Part shown: positions 4,356 through 39,021 of the stretch, piece by piece | Layout: every line of letters starts with the position of its first letter | Position numbering within the stretch: the first letter of the stretch is position 1 | Origin: Escherichia phage vB_EcoS_fTaEco01 | Sequence record: MT711527.1 | Length of the DNA: 41,273 nucleotides | Strand: one strand, 5' to 3' | Notes under the pieces: generated by a model | Seen by the model: only the letters and a program-made list of their open reading frames with translations | Told to the model about the DNA's origin: nothing | The model's database searches: none | Made by a program: the position numbers and the translations under genes

Positions 4356-4419
4356 AGTGCCTGTGATTATTCCAGTTATTCCACTCAATTGTAAATGTTG
4401 GAATAAACTATTCGAATAG

Positions 4420-4448
4420 TTGACTTTTCACCAAAAATGTGCTAAGCT
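4420..4448 (+). promoter_or_regulatory. sigma70-like promoter (TTGACT-17 nt-TAAGCT)
   Basis: Hexamers at 4420-4425 and 4443-4448 with 17-nt spacer; the ACTATTCGAATAGT palindrome abuts the -35; near-identical architecture at 34591-34619. Confidence 0.5.
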
Positions 4449-4454
4449 CCACCT

Positions 4455-4650
4455 GAGCTTGTGAAGTATGAACAAGCGACCGCGGCGCGGCAGGTAACGG
4501 AGCCGGACGTTAAGTCCGAGTGTAGTTGCGCTGACGCGTTCGGAAGGGCCATACTCTATTGCTTGTGTAAAAAGTAACTGGTTTACTGAGATTACGCCGT
4601 TTCTATGTTTAAATGATAAGGACTAGCGCCCCGCTTTAAGGCGGGGCTTT
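4455..4650 (+). ncRNA. candidate structured leader / small RNA (copy A of a duplicated element)
   Basis: Region between promoter and hairpin terminator (stem 4628-4634/4641-4647 then TTT); contains the 38-nt core CCTGAGCTTGTGAAGTATGAACAAGCGACCGCGGCGCG (4452-4489) identical to 34623-34660; no conserved ORF. Confidence 0.3.
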
Positions 4651-5058: not shown

Positions 5059-5167
5059 CGACGCGGACGAGGATTTAGCTATTGACGTCCAGAACGCAGA
5101 ATGTGTACGGCAACTGAGACTTAAAGTGTTCATGTTGCAGGATTACGTGAGGAATATTCTGGAATAG
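4904..5167 (+). CDS. o-spanin (Rz1-like outer-membrane lipoprotein), overlapped with i-spanin gene
   Basis: GTG start with GAGGT RBS; signal peptide ending in lipobox LSAC; short proline-rich mature region; starts inside 4672-5058 in another frame and extends past it. Confidence 0.55.
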   Translation: MKSLSTLKRLAAACALLTLSACSSSPAPSQTPIPSPDTTMMQPPCKLALPSNDADEDLAIDVQNAECVRQLRLKVFMLQDYVRNILE

Positions 5168-5246
5168 TTGCCTTGTATGTTGGAATAATTTATTCTTGAC
5201 ATGTAAATCCGGGTGGCCCGGATTCCAACGTCCAGGGGACATACTG

Positions 5247-12635: not shown

Positions 12636-12650
12636 TGTTGGTGTAAGTGA

Positions 12651-12679
12651 ATAGTACCCTATTATATTGGGGTGTGCAA
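12651..12679 (-). promoter_or_regulatory. promoter (TTGCAC-17 nt-TACTAT) for the minus-strand accessory cassette
   Basis: Reverse complement gives TTGCAC-ACCCCAATATAATAGGG-TACTAT; nearly identical to plus-strand promoters at 34888-34916 and 36181-36209. Confidence 0.5.
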
Positions 12680-22888: not shown

Positions 22889-24309
22889 TTCTTACCTCGT
22901 CTCTTCATGTAATTAAGCAACTCTTCCTGGACCGATTTCTTCTCGTCAGTACGCGAGGCAACAACCTCGTCCAGCGTGTCTTTAGCAACGATGTGATAGA
23001 GGAACACTGGTCGCTCATGGCCCGCCTGCTTCTGGCGCACCGGGCCTATACGCTCGACAACCTGCAAATAGTGCTCAAGGTTCCAGCCTTGCGAAATAAA
23101 CGCCAGATGATGTCCGCCGTCCTGTAAATTCAAACCATGGCCGGCTGACGCGGGGTGAACGCACAAAATCTCGATTTCACCCCGATTCCACGCTTCCATC
23201 TGCTTATTACCTTTCGCACCTTTGGCAAACGCCTGCGCCTGTGGGAATCGCTTAAGGATGCGCTCCAGTTCGTGCTTGAACTGATAAGCCACAAGTAACG
23301 GTGCGCCCTGTAGCTCCTCAACAATCGACTCAAGCGCGTCCAGTTTCGTATCGTGTACTTTCTCCCAGTCTTTGGTTGCCTCACCGTCTGGCCCCGACAC
23401 ATATACGGCACCGGAGGCAATCTGCAAACACTTTGACGTCTTCGCCGCCGCGTTAGCCGCTTCAACTTCTCCGCTCTCCAGTTCCGCGAATAACTTCTCC
23501 TCCATATCTAGGTACGCCTGACGTGCCTTCTTCGGCAGGTCGATTTCAACCGGCACTATAATAGGTGCTTCACACCCAAACCACTCAGCGGCGTCAATAG
23601 TGAGACTAATGTCCTTCATCTTCTGGTGGATCTCATTATCTGCACCAGGACGCGCATGATACTCCCGCGCCATCGCCGACTTACCTTTCTGTACCGAGTT
23701 AAACCATCGGTCGGTGAATGCCGTATATGAGGACCCCAGGCGCTCGCCGGCGTCGATAAACCAGTTCTGACCCCACAGGTCCTTGAGGCCGTTTGGTGAG
23801 GGCGTGCCGGTAAGGTTTATAAAACGCTTAACCTTTCCAAACGCCACCTTACTGAGCGCCTTTGCCCGCTTGCTACCACCTGAACGGCTGCGGAATGATT
23901 TCAGCTTCGTGCTTTCGTCGGCGACGATAACGGTAAAAGGCCAGTCGTCTTTGCCGTAGTAGTCAATCAGCCATTCGATAACTTCGTAGTTTGTACACAC
24001 CACGTTAGCGTCTGATTCCAGCGCCGCGATGCGGCGCTTCTCTGAACCTGTCGCGTCTACGACACGCAGACATGGGAAATTCCATTTCTCTTGCTCTGCC
24101 GGCCATGTGCCGGACGCAACACGTAAAGGAGCCAGAATTAACACGCGGTCGTCGTCCGTAAGTTGCCCGTTGCGGAACAGGCGGTTTAAAGTCCACAGGA
24201 CGCTGCCAGTCTTCCCGGCGCCCATGCTCGCCCAAATATTACAGCGATGGTGCTGCAACATGAACGAGGTCATGAGCTTCTGGTATTCGCGCCTTTGAAA
24301 CTTACTCAT
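22885..24309 (-). CDS. superfamily-2 DNA helicase (SNF2/DEAD-like)
   Basis: Walker A SMGAGKTG, motif II VADEST, C-terminal helicase-domain-like region. Confidence 0.7.
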   Translation of the reverse strand: MSKFQRREYQKLMTSFMLQHHRCNIWASMGAGKTGSVLWTLNRLFRNGQLTDDDRVLILAPLRVASGTWPAEQEKWNFPCLRVVDATGSEKRRIAALESDANVVCTNYEVIEWLIDYYGKDDWPFTVIVADESTKLKSFRSRSGGSKRAKALSKVAFGKVKRFINLTGTPSPNGLKDLWGQNWFIDAGERLGSSYTAFTDRWFNSVQKGKSAMAREYHARPGADNEIHQKMKDISLTIDAAEWFGCEAPIIVPVEIDLPKKARQAYLDMEEKLFAELESGEVEAANAAAKTSKCLQIASGAVYVSGPDGEATKDWEKVHDTKLDALESIVEELQGAPLLVAYQFKHELERILKRFPQAQAFAKGAKGNKQMEAWNRGEIEILCVHPASAGHGLNLQDGGHHLAFISQGWNLEHYLQVVERIGPVRQKQAGHERPVFLYHIVAKDTLDEVVASRTDEKKSVQEELLNYMKRRGKK

Positions 24310-25126
24310 TTACGGCCCCCATAAACGCCTTTATAAATTCGGCGGCTACTTGCGGGACGATGGCATTGCCGTAACCGCGCAATCGTCCCACTCTTGCGGG
24401 TATCCCATTAGCCAGCGGGAATGCGCCGGGTTCAACCGGCCGGAACTTTCCATCACGGCATCCGAGCCAGTCAGCATCTGACCAGAAGCCGTGGTGCGGG
24501 TTGGTTGACTCGCTTTCAATCCCTGCTCTGTTGAGTAGTCCAGCCTGTCGAATGTTCTGTCCCTCCCGTCCGTGCGAATCACTGTCTCTCCGCTCCCTCT
24601 GAAGTCGTTCGCACACGGTGTTGGCCAGTTGCTGCGCTCCGAAGAACAATCGATTCCTTTTGTGCGGTGCGCCGACGCTACAAGCTGGGAGTACGGCAAA
24701 CCCGACGGCGTAGTCTTCTCTTTCCAGGTGAGTTTGTAAATCGCACATCCACGATTTTGCAATTGCTGCCGCAACCTGCTCCCCAAAGATAACTGGAGGG
24801 CGGCACTCGCTGATGAGGTCGAGGAACACAGGTGCGAGGTGTCTCTGGTCGAACTGTCCGAGTTGCTTTCCTGCCGTGCTAAACGGTTGGCAAGGCGGGC
24901 TTCCCGTCCAGAGAGGCGCATCTTCCGGAACTCCCGCAAGTCTGAGCGCGAGAGGCCAGCCGCCGATACCAGCGAAAAAATGACACTGGGTGAACCCGTC
25001 AAGGTCTTCTGGCTTAACTTCGGTAATGCTTCTTTCATCTACAACTCCAAAAGGTATGTGACCATGTTTTATTAATTCACGCAGCCACGCGGCTGCGCCT
25101 TTATCCCATTCGTTGTAATAGTTCAT
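24302..25126 (-). CDS. DNA (cytosine-5)-methyltransferase, short form
   Basis: Motif I FAGIGG, motif [11 protein letters not shown], motif VIII-like HKRNRLF, C-terminal GN; only 274 aa. Confidence 0.7.
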
Positions 25127-25344: not shown

Positions 25345-25629
25345 TTAACTATAATAGCTCGCTATTAGGTCGTCAACCTGTTTAAACGAACCAACGATAA
25401 AAACATTTGCACCGCGTTTACGCATCCGCTCGTGCTCACGTATCTGGTGCGGGTCTGGCTTCGTGTTTTCGTCTTTCTTAACCTCGACGAACCATATGAC
25501 GCCGCCAGGGAGAATTACCAGCAGGTCGGGAGCGCCGGAGCGCCCCTCGTAGGAGAGCTTACGAACGAGGCCGCCGATGGCCTCGAATCGCTCTTTTGCG
25601 TATTTCTGTATTTTGCCTTCCGGTGTCAT
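25345..25629 (-). CDS. VRR-NUC domain nuclease
   Basis: PD-(D/E)xK-type core GAPDLLVIL...VIWFVEVKK; ATG 25629 preferred over TTG 25644. Confidence 0.6.
   Translation of the reverse strand: MTPEGKIQKYAKERFEAIGGLVRKLSYEGRSGAPDLLVILPGGVIWFVEVKKDENTKPDPHQIREHERMRKRGANVFIVGSFKQVDDLIASYYS
25348..25376 (-). promoter_or_regulatory. internal promoter (TTGACG-17 nt-TATAGT)
   Basis: Reverse complement TTGACG-ACCTAATAGCGAGCTAT-TATAGT; lies in the 3' end of the VRR-NUC gene. Confidence 0.45.
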
Positions 25630-28901: not shown

Positions 28902-28930
28902 ACTATAATAGCTAACTATTCAGGTGTCAA
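28902..28930 (-). promoter_or_regulatory. internal promoter (TTGACA-17 nt-TATAGT)
   Basis: Reverse complement TTGACA-CCTGAATAGTTAGCTAT-TATAGT just upstream of the SSB-like gene. Confidence 0.5.
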
Positions 28931-28934
28931 CACT

Positions 28935-30188
28935 TTATTCCAAATCTTCTTCACTAACCTGATTCCACTCAGGACGTTTGTCGTCTGCCGTTGCGACACA
29001 TGGTGCGCCCGGCTTACGGGTAATAAACGGCTCAAGCGCTGCCATCTCATCCGCCGAAAGAACTTTTGCTGCCTCCGTAGGGGACATCAATACCTCTTTT
29101 TTGAGAATGTCGCCGTGTGACACTTCAATCGCATCGGCATCTTTCCACGCACGGTTACCCATCTTACCTTCAACCAGCTTGTACCCAGGAACTTTCTTAC
29201 CGGAATGCAATGCGGCGGTCATCGCTTTCTCAACCTTGTCGATGTGCTGGCGTAACAGCGGCAACTTCTCATACTCAACTACGAGTTGCTCCGTCGTCAG
29301 TTCCAGCACAAAGTCGTCTTCAAGTTCTTCCGCCAGTACAGAATTAACCGTCTTTGTACGCGCGGCACACTGTTCAGAGAACCGGCACCACTGGCAACCA
29401 TCTACTGACGGCTTAAAGTCTGACGCTTTCAGGTTCTTCTTACCGCGGAAATATGCATCAAGTGCTAACAGTGCTCGTTTTTGTGCGAACTTAGCGAACA
29501 GTTCCAGGCCTTCAACCGAGATATCCCACTCCGACGCACCCCCAGCGTACGGCTGGAAGATGACCAGACGAACAGTTGTTATGTTATAACGTCTCTTGAG
29601 TCGGCGATAGACACCGAGCGCGTAAAGCATAAGCTGCTTGTTTTCTTTCGCTTCAACACGATGCCGTCCAGTTTTAAGGTCGCCAATAATGAGCATGTGC
29701 TCGTCGGTGTTCGCCAGTTCCTGGACAGCAACGAGGTCAGCCGTTCCGAACGTCTCGACACCTTCATACCCAGGATGCAATACCTCAGTAAGATTGACTC
29801 GCATTTCCAGCTTGGCGTAAGTCGCTACGTCGATAATCGCTTTGCAGTAGTCGGTGTACTTGCGCACCTGCTCAATCATGTCCGCCGTAATCAGTACCGC
29901 GCCTTTCATTGGGCTGATTAGCGCCTTAATCTGGCCTTTACCTTCATCCAGCACGTAAGCGCCGACTTCGCGCTCTAACGGCAACGCGGTTCCTTTGATG
30001 TACTGGTTTAAATGGACCTCAGCTATAGTGTGGCACGCGGTTCCTGTAACGGCGGCTTTACCGGACGTGTTAGGAATATCTTTTTCACAGGCCAGAGAAG
30101 CCGGGCAGGTTAGCCACTTTTTAGCGCCTGACGGTGATAGTAAGGCGTGTACATCGTTATTGCCGCCGCGCTCTTTTAGAATCATCAT
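28935..30188 (-). CDS. PD-(D/E)xK family nuclease, Cas4/RecB-like (DUF2800-type)
   Basis: N-terminal LLSPSGAKKWLTCPASLAC, C-terminal Cys cluster DGCQWCRFSEQC consistent with Cas4-like Fe-S nucleases. Confidence 0.6.
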   Translation of the reverse strand: MMILKERGGNNDVHALLSPSGAKKWLTCPASLACEKDIPNTSGKAAVTGTACHTIAEVHLNQYIKGTALPLEREVGAYVLDEGKGQIKALISPMKGAVLITADMIEQVRKYTDYCKAIIDVATYAKLEMRVNLTEVLHPGYEGVETFGTADLVAVQELANTDEHMLIIGDLKTGRHRVEAKENKQLMLYALGVYRRLKRRYNITTVRLVIFQPYAGGASEWDISVEGLELFAKFAQKRALLALDAYFRGKKNLKASDFKPSVDGCQWCRFSEQCAARTKTVNSVLAEELEDDFVLELTTEQLVVEYEKLPLLRQHIDKVEKAMTAALHSGKKVPGYKLVEGKMGNRAWKDADAIEVSHGDILKKEVLMSPTEAAKVLSADEMAALEPFITRKPGAPCVATADDKRPEWNQVSEEDLE

Positions 30189-30754: not shown

Positions 30755-31276
30755 TTATTCTTCTTCGAAATACTTGTTCTTGATTGCTGTCAGGCGCTCC
30801 AGATACTCAGCCAGGTCTTCGTCTTTAATCGCTGCAATCTTCATCTTCTTACCGGTAAACTCTTCCAGCAGTTCGTCAGAATCGTCGCACGCGGCATCGC
30901 TTGGGCCTTCGTTAATCGCATCGTCGATAGCCTGAATCTGGTCGCGCAGATACTGGTAATCGACTTCTTCTTTCTCTTCTTCCGGCTCTGGCGTTGGCTC
31001 CTCTACTTTAGCTTTACGCGGCTTGCGCTTCGGCTTCTCTTCTTCTGCTGGTTTAGTGTCGACGATGTCTTCACCTTCAACCGGGATTTCTTTCGCCTTC
31101 TCGACTTCTTCAAGTGCTTTAGCCAGTTCTTTTTTAACTGTCTCTACCCCAGTTACCGCGACGTCAACAGTCAATTCACCTACAGATTTGCTAGTCGGTT
31201 GTTTCACACTGTTTGCAGCAATCAGTTCGTGGGCGACTACGAAACGTTCCAGTAATACTAAGAATTTCTCTAACAT
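30755..31276 (-). CDS. acidic hypothetical protein (first gene downstream of promoter 31308-31336)
   Basis: 173 aa, strongly acidic with a short basic stretch (KPKRKPRKAK); strong GAGGAG RBS. Confidence 0.45.
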   Translation of the reverse strand: MLEKFLVLLERFVVAHELIAANSVKQPTSKSVGELTVDVAVTGVETVKKELAKALEEVEKAKEIPVEGEDIVDTKPAEEEKPKRKPRKAKVEEPTPEPEEEKEEVDYQYLRDQIQAIDDAINEGPSDAACDDSDELLEEFTGKKMKIAAIKDEDLAEYLERLTAIKNKYFEEE

Positions 31277-31307: not shown

Positions 31308-31336
31308 ACTATAATAGCGAACTATTCACTTGTCAA
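31308..31336 (-). promoter_or_regulatory. promoter (TTGACA-17 nt-TATAGT) for leftward operon
   Basis: Reverse complement TTGACA-AGTGAATAGTTCGCTAT-TATAGT. Confidence 0.5.
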
Positions 31337-31340
31337 TGGG

Positions 31341-31369
31341 CTTTTCTAAAATAATTAATATGGTACTAT
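31341..31369 (+). promoter_or_regulatory. possible rightward promoter with extended -10 (TGG-TACTAT)
   Basis: TG-n-TACTAT at 31361-31369 upstream of the regulator gene; -35 poor. Confidence 0.3.
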
Positions 31370-31400
31370 TCACATATCAACTGACTAAGGAGTAATTGGC

Positions 31401-31616
31401 ATGCAACCATCTGAACTAGGTATCCGTGTAGAGCAACGCCGTAAAGAACTCGGTATCTCCCAGCGCCATCTGGCTGTCCTGGCCGGTGTTTCCCAAGGCG
31501 CAATTAACCAGCTTGCACTCGGTGTAACTCAGGACGTCCGCCCGGCGACGCTGTTTAAACTGGCGGAAGTGCTTGAAGTAGACGCCAAGTGGCTGGCGTT
31601 CGGTGAAGGGGCTTAA
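31401..31616 (+). CDS. XRE-family helix-turn-helix transcriptional regulator (Cro/CI-like)
   Basis: 71 aa with HTH core LGISQRHLAVLAGVSQGAINQLA; AAGGAG RBS; own terminator; only plus-strand gene inside the minus-strand block. Confidence 0.7.
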   Translation: MQPSELGIRVEQRRKELGISQRHLAVLAGVSQGAINQLALGVTQDVRPATLFKLAEVLEVDAKWLAFGEGA

Positions 31617-31631
31617 CGCCCCTTTCTTTTT
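31606..31631 (+). terminator. rho-independent terminator
   Basis: AAGGGGC-TTAAC-GCCCCTT followed by TCTTTTT. Confidence 0.6.
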
Positions 31632-31633
31632 AC

Positions 31634-33895
31634 CTATTCCAAATCCTCCTCTGTCACTGTCAGCATTTCATTCGGTTCGTATATTGTCTTAGGAATTTTG
31701 TTGTCGTTTATACCCCACGGCAGCCGGTACTGCTTAGGTATTGGCCTGTTGTTGTTATCCAGACCCGAGACGATAATCCCGGCCTCATGCATCTCTTCCA
31801 GTTTCTTTCGAAGGTCGTTATTAGCGTTAATCGGTACGCCGTAACTATCTTCTTTCGCCGCTTTGACGATAGCGGACATAGAAAACCCGCGCTTGTCGTC
31901 ACCCTGCTCCTGCAATTTACCCAATGCGTAAATAACCGTAGCCTCTTTGGAATCCAGTTTCTCGAACTGGCCTACCTTTTCTTTAACGGCTTCCTTCTGT
32001 TCGTCGGTCATACCTTCTACTTTCTTCACGAAGACAGAGAAGGCGTTGAAGTTGACAAAGACATCAATATGCGGATTTCCCGCGTCAAAATCGCGCACAT
32101 CGTCGCTACTGTACCCTTCTGGAAGACCCATGAAGTTGTGAGTTGGTTCTTTCTTTTCTGGTGGTTCCGCTATCTGAATCTTCTGTATTACGAATCCTCT
32201 GGCTTTCTGCCGTTCTCCGTTTCGGTTCTTTATGTGGTACAGGTTTATCTCTAAGTTGTTATCGTTGTCCGGTTTATGCAGAAACATCCCGTTATCGATG
32301 GAGTTGTGAAAATCACTACCACCTTTCGGCATCATGCCGTTCTCGGATGGTACGGTTTCGTCGATGTTTTTAGTCGGGTGCACCATTGCACCTACCGCGG
32401 CGTTAAGCGTCGATGCTATTTCGTTAAGCGCCTGCGCTGCTTCTTTCATAGACCGGTTGTCGTTCTCGTCGAAGCCCGGTATGCAAGTTTGTAGAGTATC
32501 AAACGTAACCTTTACAATTTTCTCTTCACCGGCAACACGGCGCATCATTCTCACCGCCTGGCGGCGCCACGCCTCATCAAGTAAATTACACCCATCGGCG
32601 ACACAATCGATAATGTGCAAGCGGTCCAGGCTATCCCCGAGGGCAATCTGCAAAGACTTTTTATGTCGCTCGAACGACTGCGCACCTTCACCCGCAAAAA
32701 TGAACGCATGTCCTTCTGCGACCTCAGCCCCGCCGAACGCATATCTTTTTTCAGCGGCAATAGCGGCGTCAATCGCCATACTAAATGTTGACTTACCAGT
32801 GTGGGACTTTGCGCAAATGTAGAAGGATTCATTAGTCTGCATAAGGCCGTCTACGACGGAGTAAGCAGGTTCTTTTTCTACTTCCGGCTCGTCTTCAAGG
32901 TCTTCCAGCGTGCAAGTTACAGGCTCTTCGTTCTCTGTGCGGTGCAATTCCTCAATCTCTTCGTCCGGTAAATCCGGCAAAGCCGCACGAATGCTGTTAA
33001 TACTGATAGGTTGCTTGTCTACGTTAAGCTCGTCTGGCAGTCCGCACATACGCAAGGCCAAATGTTGTCGACGGTTAAGTTCAGTGCAAGCGCCGTTGTT
33101 TGTGTGCTGGCACACGAAGCGCACTTCTTTACCGTCAAGCATAATGCTGGTGGAACCTTTGCCTGTATGCAGATGTTCATTAGGGCATGGCACTTCATAC
33201 CCTCGGCCGGAAGATAAAGCGTCAAGGCCCAGCTCGGCTTCGCAGAAATGAGCTATATCTGCGTTAAGCCCGTGCTCATCGGCGGCAAGTGTCTTAGCCT
33301 CGCGTTTACGCAGCCCCATCTCTTCGGCTTTCTTGATGTACCGCTCCGCACGGATAACACGCCCTTCTGTAACCGTTATCTTAGACTCTTTATGCGGCAG
33401 GTAGATGAGGCGGTTGCCGTCTTCCGTGCAGTGGTCGCGCAGCGATTCATCTATTTCTAACTCGGCACAAATAGCACGTTGCACCATCCACGCGTCGTTA
33501 GAGTTAAACGGCGTGCGAGCTGGAACCAGAACGCGGAATGCGTAATCCCCGTTTTTACACGCGTGCTGGTGTGACGCCGTTGTATGCAGAATGTTGAAGA
33601 ACGGCGCATTCTTAAATTTGCGTGTCAGGTTGCGGTACTGAGTACGGTTGAGATGGTCAAAGTCGAACTTAACCACACTGTCTTCCAGAATCGCGTTCTT
33701 ACGGCGACCACCAACAGGTGCGATAGCTTTCTGTTTAATCTTGGCGGCGTCGTACTCTTCCTTAGTCCACGACGGGTCCACGGATAAACGCTTCGATGTA
33801 TCACAGACATACTCCACAAACTGCTCCAGCGGCATTTCACGCGCTACAGGGTTTTTATCGAATGTGTTACGCAGCGTCGCAAAAACAATATTCAT
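31634..33895 (-). CDS. DNA primase/helicase (zinc-binding primase-like N-terminal region plus P-loop ATPase)
   Basis: 753 aa; Cys/His cluster CPNEHLH...CQHTNNGAC; Walker A AKSHTGKST. Confidence 0.7.
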   Translation of the reverse strand: MNIVFATLRNTFDKNPVAREMPLEQFVEYVCDTSKRLSVDPSWTKEEYDAAKIKQKAIAPVGGRRKNAILEDSVVKFDFDHLNRTQYRNLTRKFKNAPFFNILHTTASHQHACKNGDYAFRVLVPARTPFNSNDAWMVQRAICAELEIDESLRDHCTEDGNRLIYLPHKESKITVTEGRVIRAERYIKKAEEMGLRKREAKTLAADEHGLNADIAHFCEAELGLDALSSGRGYEVPCPNEHLHTGKGSTSIMLDGKEVRFVCQHTNNGACTELNRRQHLALRMCGLPDELNVDKQPISINSIRAALPDLPDEEIEELHRTENEEPVTCTLEDLEDEPEVEKEPAYSVVDGLMQTNESFYICAKSHTGKSTFSMAIDAAIAAEKRYAFGGAEVAEGHAFIFAGEGAQSFERHKKSLQIALGDSLDRLHIIDCVADGCNLLDEAWRRQAVRMMRRVAGEEKIVKVTFDTLQTCIPGFDENDNRSMKEAAQALNEIASTLNAAVGAMVHPTKNIDETVPSENGMMPKGGSDFHNSIDNGMFLHKPDNDNNLEINLYHIKNRNGERQKARGFVIQKIQIAEPPEKKEPTHNFMGLPEGYSSDDVRDFDAGNPHIDVFVNFNAFSVFVKKVEGMTDEQKEAVKEKVGQFEKLDSKEATVIYALGKLQEQGDDKRGFSMSAIVKAAKEDSYGVPINANNDLRKKLEEMHEAGIIVSGLDNNNRPIPKQYRLPWGINDNKIPKTIYEPNEMLTVTEEDLE

Positions 33896-34070: not shown

Positions 34071-34304
34071 CTAGCGTTGGGGTTTCTTTTGTCTACGCAC
34101 CGCATTAACCCACTCTCCTTCGCTACGGTAAAAACTGCAATCAAGGATATCCTCTATAGAAAATTTAACTATTTTAGTGGGTCCACAAAAGTTATAAGGG
34201 AAAAGTTCTACATAACACCCATCGTCGGTTATATTTGACGCAATCTTGAAATAATATTTAATGCTGCCGTCTTCGCGGAAGCTACAACCCATACGCCCAA
34301 TCAT
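34071..34304 (-). CDS. hypothetical protein
   Basis: 77-aa ORF ATGA-coupled to upstream HTH gene. Confidence 0.4.
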   Translation of the reverse strand: MIGRMGCSFREDGSIKYYFKIASNITDDGCYVELFPYNFCGPTKIVKFSIEDILDCSFYRSEGEWVNAVRRQKKPQR

Positions 34305-34483
34305 TTCACGTTCTCCTTAATCCATGCTTCAACTTTATTACGGTCGAATGTTCCCGGTAAACGGCGACCCATAACCTTAATACAACAATCCGGGAATTTA
34401 CCACTGCGTAACCAGTTATTAATTGTCTGACGTGTCACCCCAATACGCTCGGCTACTTCATTCTGGGTCATGTAATGTTGCAT
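34301..34483 (-). CDS. helix-turn-helix DNA-binding protein (AlpA/excisionase-like fold), first gene of leftward early operon
   Basis: MTQNEVAERIGVTRQTINNWL HTH core; CAGGAG RBS before ATG 34483. Confidence 0.55.
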   Translation of the reverse strand: MQHYMTQNEVAERIGVTRQTINNWLRSGKFPDCCIKVMGRRLPGTFDRNKVEAWIKENVK

Positions 34484-34543: not shown

Positions 34544-34590
34544 CCAAAACACCACACAAAGTTACTAAGATACAAAAGATGCTACTAGTA

Positions 34591-34619
34591 TTGACTTTTA
34601 CTAAGAAATATGGTAAGCT
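34591..34619 (+). promoter_or_regulatory. rightward sigma70-like promoter (TTGACT-17 nt-TAAGCT)
   Basis: Same hexamers and spacing as the promoter at 4420-4448. Confidence 0.5.
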
Positions 34620-34625
34620 CAGCCT

Positions 34626-34825
34626 GAGCTTGTGAAGTATGAACAAGCGACCGCGGCGCGCGGCAGGCGAAACGAGCACGTGTAACGTGTGGAGTGAGGC
34701 TCGCTGGCGCGTTTGGGAGGCCCAAAGTCTATTGTAATTCCCGCCTAATTATCTAAGTTACTGATTTGCCGTAGGTTAGAACCGCCAGCTCACTCACTCA
34801 CTCTTGGTGCCTTCGGCACCACGTT
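34626..34825 (+). ncRNA. candidate structured leader / small RNA (copy B of duplicated element)
   Basis: 38-nt core at 34623-34660 identical to 4452-4489; short hairpin GGTGCC-TTC-GGCACC at 34806-34820; no conserved ORF. Confidence 0.3.
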
Positions 34826-34887: not shown

Positions 34888-34916
34888 TTGCACACCCCAA
34901 CATAATAGGATACTAT
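34888..34916 (+). promoter_or_regulatory. promoter (TTGCAC-17 nt-TACTAT) for rightward small-gene cluster
   Basis: TTGCAC-ACCCCAACATAATAGGA-TACTAT. Confidence 0.5.
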
Positions 34917-34950
34917 TCACTTATCGAAACGAGACAGAGGAGTGAGGGTT

Positions 34951-36180: not shown

Positions 36181-36209
36181 TTGCACACTAAGATAGAATA
36201 GGCTACTAT
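36181..36209 (+). promoter_or_regulatory. promoter (TTGCAC-17 nt-TACTAT)
   Basis: TTGCAC-ACTAAGATAGAATAGGC-TACTAT. Confidence 0.45.
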
Positions 36210-36240
36210 TCATTTACACAAACGAGAGGAGAGACAGAAT

Positions 36241-38970: not shown

Positions 38971-38992
38971 ATCTATCTTCCGCAATGACTAG

Positions 38993-39021
38993 TTGACTAT
39001 TACTCTCACACCAATTATATT
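38993..39021 (+). promoter_or_regulatory. sigma70-like promoter (TTGACT-17 nt-TATATT)
   Basis: Hexamers with 17-nt spacer downstream of the strong terminator. Confidence 0.45.

Follow-up and report, generated by a model that had tools for sequence, protein, structure and literature searches.

The proteins of phage 434 read positions 1-5 and 10-14 of their 14-bp operators and leave the centre uncontacted; their residue Gln28 contacts operator position 1, and the recognition helix of the 434 repressor has the sequence TQQSIEQ. Repeated sequence elements have been described as "phage-specific promoters" in phage fBC-Eco01, where seven sites detected by PHIRE (consensus tgAATAGTa-ccTATTat-T) were assigned to a phage RNA polymerase (PMC9825357), and in phage Golestan, also with seven PHIRE sites (PMC7203180). 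Gp36 of mycobacteriophage D29, a repressor of phage genes made by this virulent phage itself, and BldC, a developmental regulator of Streptomyces, are small MerR-like winged-helix regulators that occupy direct repeats as head-to-tail oligomers (PMC12266134, PMC5859096). Here we analysed the 41,273 nucleotides of Escherichia phage vB_EcoS_fTaEco01 in record MT711527.1 (hereafter the window, whose numbering is used throughout), with a focus on an XRE/Cro-like gene at 31401-31616 and on a 14-bp dyad, AATAG-N4-CTATT, repeated over the promoters. The window appears to be a complete Kagunavirus genome, that of a K1G-like virulent siphovirus, since its first gene encodes the large terminase. The dyad is very probably the operator of a phage-encoded dimeric DNA-binding protein, and homology and site geometry give the XRE protein a slightly better than even chance of being that protein.

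The dyad and its promoters

The initial annotation had proposed the heptamer ACTATTC as the half-site of a repressor or an activator, and suggested that its occurrences be counted against expectation. The count indeed exceeded the expectation (9 copies versus 4.33), but only marginally, with 1 of 100 shuffled sequences reaching 9. The nonamer ACTATTCAC, reported at 31321-31329 and 31365-31373 and present at both positions, had 4 copies where 0.27 were expected (0 of 100 shuffles). The 14-bp dyad AATAG-N4-CTATT was found in 6 exact copies versus 0.04 expected, again in 0 of 100 shuffles, and in 10 copies versus 0.91 when one mismatch was allowed; when all 5-N(0-8)-5 palindromes were counted de novo, it was the commonest one in the window, and likewise in the genome of the Jerseyvirus Ent1. 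Six of the nine heptamers corresponded to the right arm of the dyad plus flanking bases, those at 4407 (plus strand) and 5162 (minus strand) were not arms of a complete dyad, and in promoters of the TTGCAC type ACTATTC consists of the last five bases of the -10 element TACTAT followed by TC. The functional unit is the 14-bp dyad and not the 7-bp half-site; the heptamer retains its place in a repressor-type cis element common to several promoters, although as one arm of it with its flanks. With the flanking positions included, the element extends to 16 bp (T/G-AATAG...CTATT-A/C). The base 5' of the AATAG arm was T in 34 of 34 Jerseyvirus half-sites, which gives a perfect 16-bp TAATAG...CTATTA, while the 136 Kagunavirus half-sites had 68 T and 56 G at this position, a genus-specific difference between the operators.

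Seven strong sites, the six exact dyads and a one-mismatch copy at 31357-31370, each lay within the core of a sigma-70-type promoter, and the four best sigma-70-like matches between 24.5 and 41.3 kb all bore the dyad. The promoters fell into families with three different registers. In family A, formed by three TTGCAC-17-TACTAT promoters and the XRE promoter, the dyad spans approximately -19 to -6 and covers the -10 element. Its exact copies are located at 12650-12663, on a minus-strand promoter (-35 at 12679-12674) upstream of the imm, metallophosphoesterase, PNK and deoxynucleoside monophosphate kinase genes; at 34904-34917, on a plus-strand promoter (TTGCAC at 34888-34893, TACTAT at 34911-34916) that precedes small early genes; and at 36197-36210, where a perfect 16-bp GAATAG...CTATTC overlies a plus-strand promoter that leads into small genes and the lysis cassette. 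In family B (TTGACA/G-17-TATAGT, all on the minus strand) the dyad is placed in the spacer, at approximately -25 to -12. This family comprises the exact dyads at 25353-25366, within the promoter 25376-25348 of a 63-aa gene, a C5 methyltransferase and an SNF2 helicase; at 28907-28920, within the promoter 28930-28902 upstream of a DUF2815 gene resembling single-stranded DNA-binding proteins (SSB-like) and of the DNA polymerase gene; and at 31313-31326 (AATAGCGAACTATT), here named O_L, within the promoter P_L (TTGACA-17-TATAGT, 31336-31308). Family C groups one-mismatch copies centred on a TTGACT -35 element upstream of late-region genes: the weaker site ACTAGTTGACTATT at 38988-39001, on the promoter 38993-39021 (TTGACT-17-TATATT) that precedes small genes and the terminase, and AATAGTTGACTTTT at 4415-4428, on the -35 at 4420 of a late-region promoter. 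The position of the 38988 site is kept in both genera, with the Jerseyvirus mismatch on the other arm (AATAGTTGACTAGT). Families A and B have nothing in common besides the dyad, and overlap with the core promoter is the sole property found in all registers. The dyad-bearing promoters cover the nucleotide-metabolism, methyltransferase/helicase, SSB-like/polymerase and nuclease operons, the XRE gene and two blocks of small genes running into the lysis cassette.

The statement that the heptamer recurs in every promoter did not survive this survey: the promoter at 25376-25348 has the dyad and no heptamer, the one at 38993-39021 has ACTATTA, and neither dyad nor heptamer was found in the promoter of the primase operon (TTGCTT-17-TATACT, about 34543-34515, minus strand) or in the plus-strand promoter near 34591. 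Likewise, the palindrome ACTATTCGAATAGT at 4407-4420 does adjoin the TTGACT -35 as described, but its arms stand back to back (CTATTC|GAATAG), in the order opposite to that of the operator. As its right half is the left arm of AATAGTTGACTTTT, it is composed of an orphan arm and part of the 4415-4428 site, and does not have operator geometry.

Conservation was assessed on 37 Kagunavirus and 11 Jerseyvirus copies of eight promoters (window included, unique sequences only). Over these approximately 48 genomes, the arms of the dyad matched the consensus at 98%, the centre at 84% and the 8-nt flanks at 86%, and for the spacer-type promoters alone the values were 0.93-0.99 for the arms versus 0.69-0.74 for the centre. 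The left arm of O_L was unchanged in 48 of 48 genomes and the right arm in 45 of 48, around at least 8 different central tetramers. At the SSB/polymerase promoter, which reads TTGACAcctgAATAGTTAGCTATTATAGT in Kagunavirus versus TTGACAagttAATAGTACTCTATTATATT in Jerseyvirus, 10 of 10 arm positions are the same in both genera and 6 of the 8 other spacer positions differ. All 47 Kaguna- and Jersey-like loci in IMG/VR had 2 to 6 exact sites within at most 20 kb, and no exact dyad was found in the IMG/VR loci with 434-type Cro genes. It should be considered that the ungapped search for the 12650 promoter in the 20-kb loci probably took the paralogous site of the 34904 promoter, which was not counted as independent.

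The sites thus have the marks of repressor operators: they are dyad-symmetric, overlap core promoters, recur several times per genome and keep their arms better than their centre. The dyad cannot be part of what RNA polymerase recognises, because the same dyad occurs in three registers and the contacts of polymerase are register-specific. A promoter for a phage RNA polymerase was rejected as well: there is no RNA polymerase gene among the annotated genes of the near-identical phage vB_EcoS_fTaEco03, and the three registers are set against sigma-70 hexamers.

The XRE/Cro-like gene and its divergent promoters

The regulator had been described as a lone plus-strand helix-turn-helix (HTH) gene with its own terminator, embedded in a minus-strand block and facing a leftward promoter, and each of these elements was found in place. 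The 71-aa open reading frame (ORF; 31401-31616, stop codon included) is preceded by the ribosome-binding site AAGGAG at 31387-31392, and its stop codon is overlapped by an intrinsic terminator at 31605-31631 (hairpin and T-run at 31605-31625) with an 8-bp stem, GAAGGGGC/GCCCCTTT, followed by CTTTTT. This terminator is one-directional, having no T-run on the minus strand. We detected no recognisable terminator in the convergent primase operon (34483 to 31634, minus strand) ahead of the antisense XRE gene, and transcriptional interference is therefore possible, since that operon could read antisense through XRE into P_L. The leftward promoter that the gene faces is P_L, which agrees with the consensus at 11 of 12 positions, shares the top sigma-70 score between 24.5 and 41.3 kb, and drives the genes from 31276 to 28935 (a 173-aa protein, a 90-aa protein, DUF551 and the DUF2800 nuclease). 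The first of them, divergent to XRE, encodes the 173-aa protein, which has no assigned function.

The probable promoter of XRE has the extended -10 element TGgTACTAT at 31361-31369 and a poor -35, CTTTTC, at 31341-31346, and has TACTATTCAC in common with the three TTGCAC-type promoters; a promoter scan gave TTCACT-16-TAAAAT at 31325-31352 as an alternative. Over the -10 lies the one-mismatch dyad O_R (AATATGGTACTATT, 31357-31370), whose left arm is AATAT. O_L and O_R are 44 bp apart, between the XRE gene and the divergent promoter, with the two -35 regions back to back. The AATAT arm was the same in 37 of 37 Kagunavirus copies, it is retained by lineages with another central tetramer and an XRE of only 77-78% identity, and the Jerseyvirus XRE promoter carries a still weaker copy of the dyad.

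The XRE protein matched Pfam HTH_3 over residues 11-65 (44.2 bits, cut-off 23, E-value 2e-11). Its best sequence match in the PDB was phage 434 Cro (E-value 5.5e-7, residues 6-68), with the 434 repressor next (1.3e-5), and a full-length alignment with 434 Cro, also of 71 aa, gave 43% identity. The AlphaFold2 model, with five helices and a predicted local distance difference test (pLDDT) score of 79, was matched by Foldseek to 434 Cro with template-modelling (TM) scores of 0.74-0.80 for 2cro and 0.76-0.81 for 3cro, and also to the 434 repressor, P22 c2, SinR and C proteins (TM 0.7-0.8). The recognition helix reads SQGAINQ. Its first glutamine is shared without exception by the window, Jerseyvirus and 434 Cro sequences, and the following residue is glycine in the window or serine in Jerseyvirus, replacing Gln29 of the 434 proteins.

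The 1.3-kb region around the gene had matches in 442 phage records, nearly all of them of Kagunavirus and Jerseyvirus (Guernseyvirinae), the best being 98-99% identical (fTaEco03, 99.2%). The window is collinear with fTaEco03 (41,972 bp), whose annotation lists no cI-type repressor, integrase or excisionase module. By the same annotation, a lambdoid immunity region was not recognised, with no divergent cI, tripartite OR or integrase. The product of 31401-31616 is thus, as far as homology and annotation indicate, an "orphan Cro", a homologue of 434 Cro in a genome without annotated cI or integrase. A search for close homologues in bacterial genomes gave only relatives at 45% identity or less, which were uninformative, and a search of 5.8 billion proteins recovered XRE variants down to 77% identity, all on Kaguna-like contigs with both this and a second HTH gene (see below) and all with an unchanged recognition helix and unchanged sites.

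Candidate binders of the dyad and a proposed circuit

Binding to the dyad should repress rather than activate transcription, repression being favoured by the location of the sites within core promoters that are intrinsically strong, with a spacer of 17 bp and agreement with the consensus at up to 11 of 12 positions. In the circuit that we propose, a dimer of the Cro-like protein would bind the dyads and block RNA polymerase by occlusion. The protein would be made from its weak extended -10 promoter and accumulate, and its rising level would turn down the strong early and middle promoters that serve replication, nucleotide metabolism and the small early genes. The XRE promoter itself, with the weaker operator (AATAT arm), would be shut off only at a higher concentration, which would amount to negative autoregulation; delayed feedback of this kind is expected to use a weaker operator at the promoter of the regulator. 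The pattern of conservation along the dyad is the pattern of contacts made by the 434 proteins, and the geometry of the candidate operator is in this respect like that of 434.

Several observations speak against the XRE protein as the binder or lessen the weight of the comparative data. Between Kagunavirus and Jerseyvirus, the XRE proteins have only 51-52% identity and differ at 4 of the 7 recognition-helix residues (SQGAINQ versus SQSLITH), yet the operator arms are the same. The Cornell-like phages VSiP and GRNsp27 encode XRE homologues 41-43% identical to that of the window and have no dyad with one mismatch or less, even though the homologue of the Cornellvirus VSiP has a helix, TQSAISH, like that of Jerseyvirus; the orthologous Cornell-like promoters hold only decayed relics of the dyad, and no alternative palindrome was common to them. 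The three TTGCAC promoters are paralogues over approximately 40 nt, and therefore not independent observations. Moreover, all the comparative evidence is confounded by phylogeny. In addition, a second small HTH gene follows the dyad at least as closely: HTH_17 (34301-34483, minus strand; 60 aa, Pfam HTH_17 1.6e-8), which opens the primase operon, occurs in precisely the 442 records that make up the dyad-bearing clade, is 82% identical between genera with identical arms, and is absent from VSiP and GRNsp27, which lack the dyad yet keep the XRE homologue. The presence and absence of the genes thus fit HTH_17 at least as well as XRE, because HTH_17 and the dyad are co-distributed and the Cornell-like phages have XRE without dyad. 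The XRE protein, named from the start as a candidate binder, keeps this status but is no longer the sole one.

The first alternative is consequently that the HTH_17 protein binds the dyad and represses (less likely activates) the dyad promoters, XRE being just one of its targets. RacA (5i44), one of the top structural matches of HTH_17, binds a 14-bp inverted repeat, which counts in favour of this reading. HTH_17 has a genuine DNA-binding fold, its model being a MerR/excisionase-type winged helix that Foldseek matched to RacA, BldC, Xis, RdfS, Cox, lambda gpNu1 and MerR DNA-binding domains (TM 0.6-0.7). Such proteins can repress genes in a lytic phage, as D29 Gp36 does (PMC12266134), and RNA sequencing of a Kagunavirus placed an HTH gene among four early genes (PMC12645636), which gene order leads us to infer is HTH_17. 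The same data set, from phage K1B4, is too coarse to show repression, and its supplementary table covers host genes only. We nevertheless consider this alternative, serious as it is, unlikely. The model has no dimerisation helix, and the characterised proteins of the class that lack a dimerisation domain (BldC, Gp36, Xis, Cox) occupy direct repeats in head-to-tail fashion (PMC5859096, PMC12266134). The promoter of HTH_17 itself lacks the dyad, which is unusual for a small repressor, and a repressor whose unregulated promoter fires first would silence the replication genes at once, which makes little sense as regulation. Activation is unnecessary at promoters that match 11 of 12 consensus positions with 17-bp spacers. 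As for activation of the MerR type, in which the spacer is bound, it needs spacers of 19-20 bp and a regulator with a coiled-coil dimerisation domain, and was rejected on the 17-bp spacers and the variable register, HTH_17 being besides a 60-aa winged helix only.

Covariation between regulator and operator was tried as a test of the binder and failed to separate the two proteins. It is uninformative because the arms are invariant in the clade and the Cornell-like phages differ in both candidates, and no lineage with only one of the two genes was found among the 5.8 billion proteins searched.

It is also conceivable, but improbable, that the dyad is read by both HTH proteins, the early HTH_17 and the later Cro-like protein competing or cooperating in a two-factor temporal switch over nearly all promoters through one operator in three registers, or else by the BldC/Xis-like protein alone; the latter, if true, would be a binding mode on a symmetric dyad unprecedented for the class.

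We give equally little credence to a third alternative, in which a host protein, or a phage protein without recognisable DNA-binding domain, binds the dyad and XRE regulates something else. Nothing ties XRE directly to the site, phages of Escherichia, Salmonella and Raoultella, hosts with common regulators, carry the identical site, and the phage has many small ORFs without assigned function. Against a host binder, the closely related Cornell-like Salmonella phages have the same hosts and lack the site, and we know of no enterobacterial regulator with an AATAG-N4-CTATT motif. Among other phage proteins, a NinH-like protein was rejected since it is also present in dyad-free phages, and a Q/AlpA-type antiterminator loading site was rejected on the variable register and the 17-bp spacers.

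Finally, it is very improbable that no dedicated regulator exists and that the repeat reflects promoter paralogy, with ACTATTC being -10 plus discriminator in one family and a chance or hitch-hiking spacer in the other. In favour of this reading, the right arm is part of the -10 in the TTGCAC family, whose three members are clearly paralogous, and the heptamer enrichment is marginal by itself. Against it, polymerase reads little sequence in the spacer, which holds the left arm in that family and the entire dyad in the TTGACA family; two otherwise unrelated families share the dyad, which occurs in three registers; centre and flanks vary across two genera around constant arms; and the exact dyads far exceed expectation.

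Neighbouring features, significance and comparison with known systems

Other features of the genome were recorded alongside the dyad. A second dyad, GAATA-N3-TATTC, occurs at 4401-4413 and 5183-5195, in two late-region promoter areas that also have in common the motif TGTTGGAATAA (at 4394 and 5178), and direct TTATTCCA repeats are found at 4367-4385. It may be the site of a different regulator, and the system is independent of AATAG-N4-CTATT because the 5163-5200 block is kept in the Cornellvirus VSiP. In Cornell-like phages (loci L004, 34760-34800, and L005, 12520-12560) an 8-N10-8 inverted repeat, GCAA(C/T)ACG...CGTGTTGC, overlaps the -35/-10 region of the primase promoter, just downstream of the XRE homologue. 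An element of approximately 85 nt is duplicated on the plus strand of the window at 4419-4500 and 34589-34675 with approximately 85% identity; in each copy a promoter, TTGACTTTT...TAAGCT, precedes the conserved transcribed leader CCTGAGCTTGTGAAGTATGAACAAGCGACCGCGGCGCGGCAGG with a start-proximal hairpin. Its fold z-scores were -2.3 and -1.0, it had no Rfam match (an Rfam scan of the whole window gave zero matches), and it may act as a leader common to both transcripts or as a small RNA.

In the replication block, otherwise 99-100% identical to that of fTaEco03, the C5 cytosine methyltransferase (24302-25126, minus strand) is the main gene that differs, with 87% identity and another length, which suggests a swapped allele. 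The DUF2800 nuclease (28935-30188, minus strand) and the primase-helicase (31634-33895, minus strand) both end in ...EEDLE*, encoded by the same 3' DNA, TTATTCCAAATC, and the 173-aa protein (30755-31276, minus strand) ends in ...YFEEE*. The acidic C-terminal tails of the three proteins recall the docking tails of T7 replisome proteins.

Members of Kagunavirus and Jerseyvirus are described as lytic. Among phages considered for therapy and biocontrol of E. coli and Salmonella they are some of the most frequently isolated, they have been proposed as small chassis for synthetic biology, and their "repressor/Cro/DicA" gene regularly draws a flag for possible temperate behaviour. If the gene indeed encodes an orphan Cro that damps lytic transcription, this annotation problem would be settled and the published "phage RNA polymerase promoter" label of the repeat corrected. 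Engineering of these phages would also gain a defined operator-repressor pair and a promoter map, and cells expressing the XRE protein should then be immune to the whole clade.

Compared with previous descriptions, the dyad is the same repeated element as in fBC-Eco01 and Golestan, with about the same copy number per genome. It was attributed there to a phage RNA polymerase, whereas here it lies within sigma-70-type promoters in three registers and fits an operator, not a promoter. The literature that we searched contained no link between the repeat and a Cro-like gene, and no functional work on the Cro-like protein. D29 Gp36 and BldC have in common with the HTH_17 protein of the window their fold and their nature as small DNA-binding regulators, and differ in using direct repeats and head-to-tail oligomers rather than a symmetric inverted repeat.

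The closest parallel is 434 Cro. As a control of geometry, the Cro of the lambdoid phage RothD, 44% identical to XRE, is encoded between cI and cII, and the region upstream of its cro contains ACAAACAAGTTTGT and related 14-bp operators of the 434 type (ACAA-N6-TTGT). The regulator of the window resembles 434 Cro in its length of 71 aa and five-helix fold, in a 14-bp candidate operator with arms at 1-5 and 10-14 and a variable centre that is presumably not contacted, as in ACAA-N6-TTGT, in the overlap of the sites with core promoters and in the weaker site at the regulator's own promoter. It differs in the half-site (AATAG here versus ACAAG), in the recognition helix (QQ to QG), in the lack of a cI partner, integrase or PRM/PR switch in the annotation of its near-identical relative, and in having single sites, at which binding is predicted, over at least 7 promoters of a virulent genome instead of tripartite OR/OL. 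The proposed Cro/XRE repressor with dyad operators is a regulator of a well-known kind, mildly unusual as an orphan Cro with single-site operators at most promoters of a virulent phage, and its predicted role would be to turn down early transcription in lytic growth, as lambdoid Cro does at PL and PR, extended to the whole genome.

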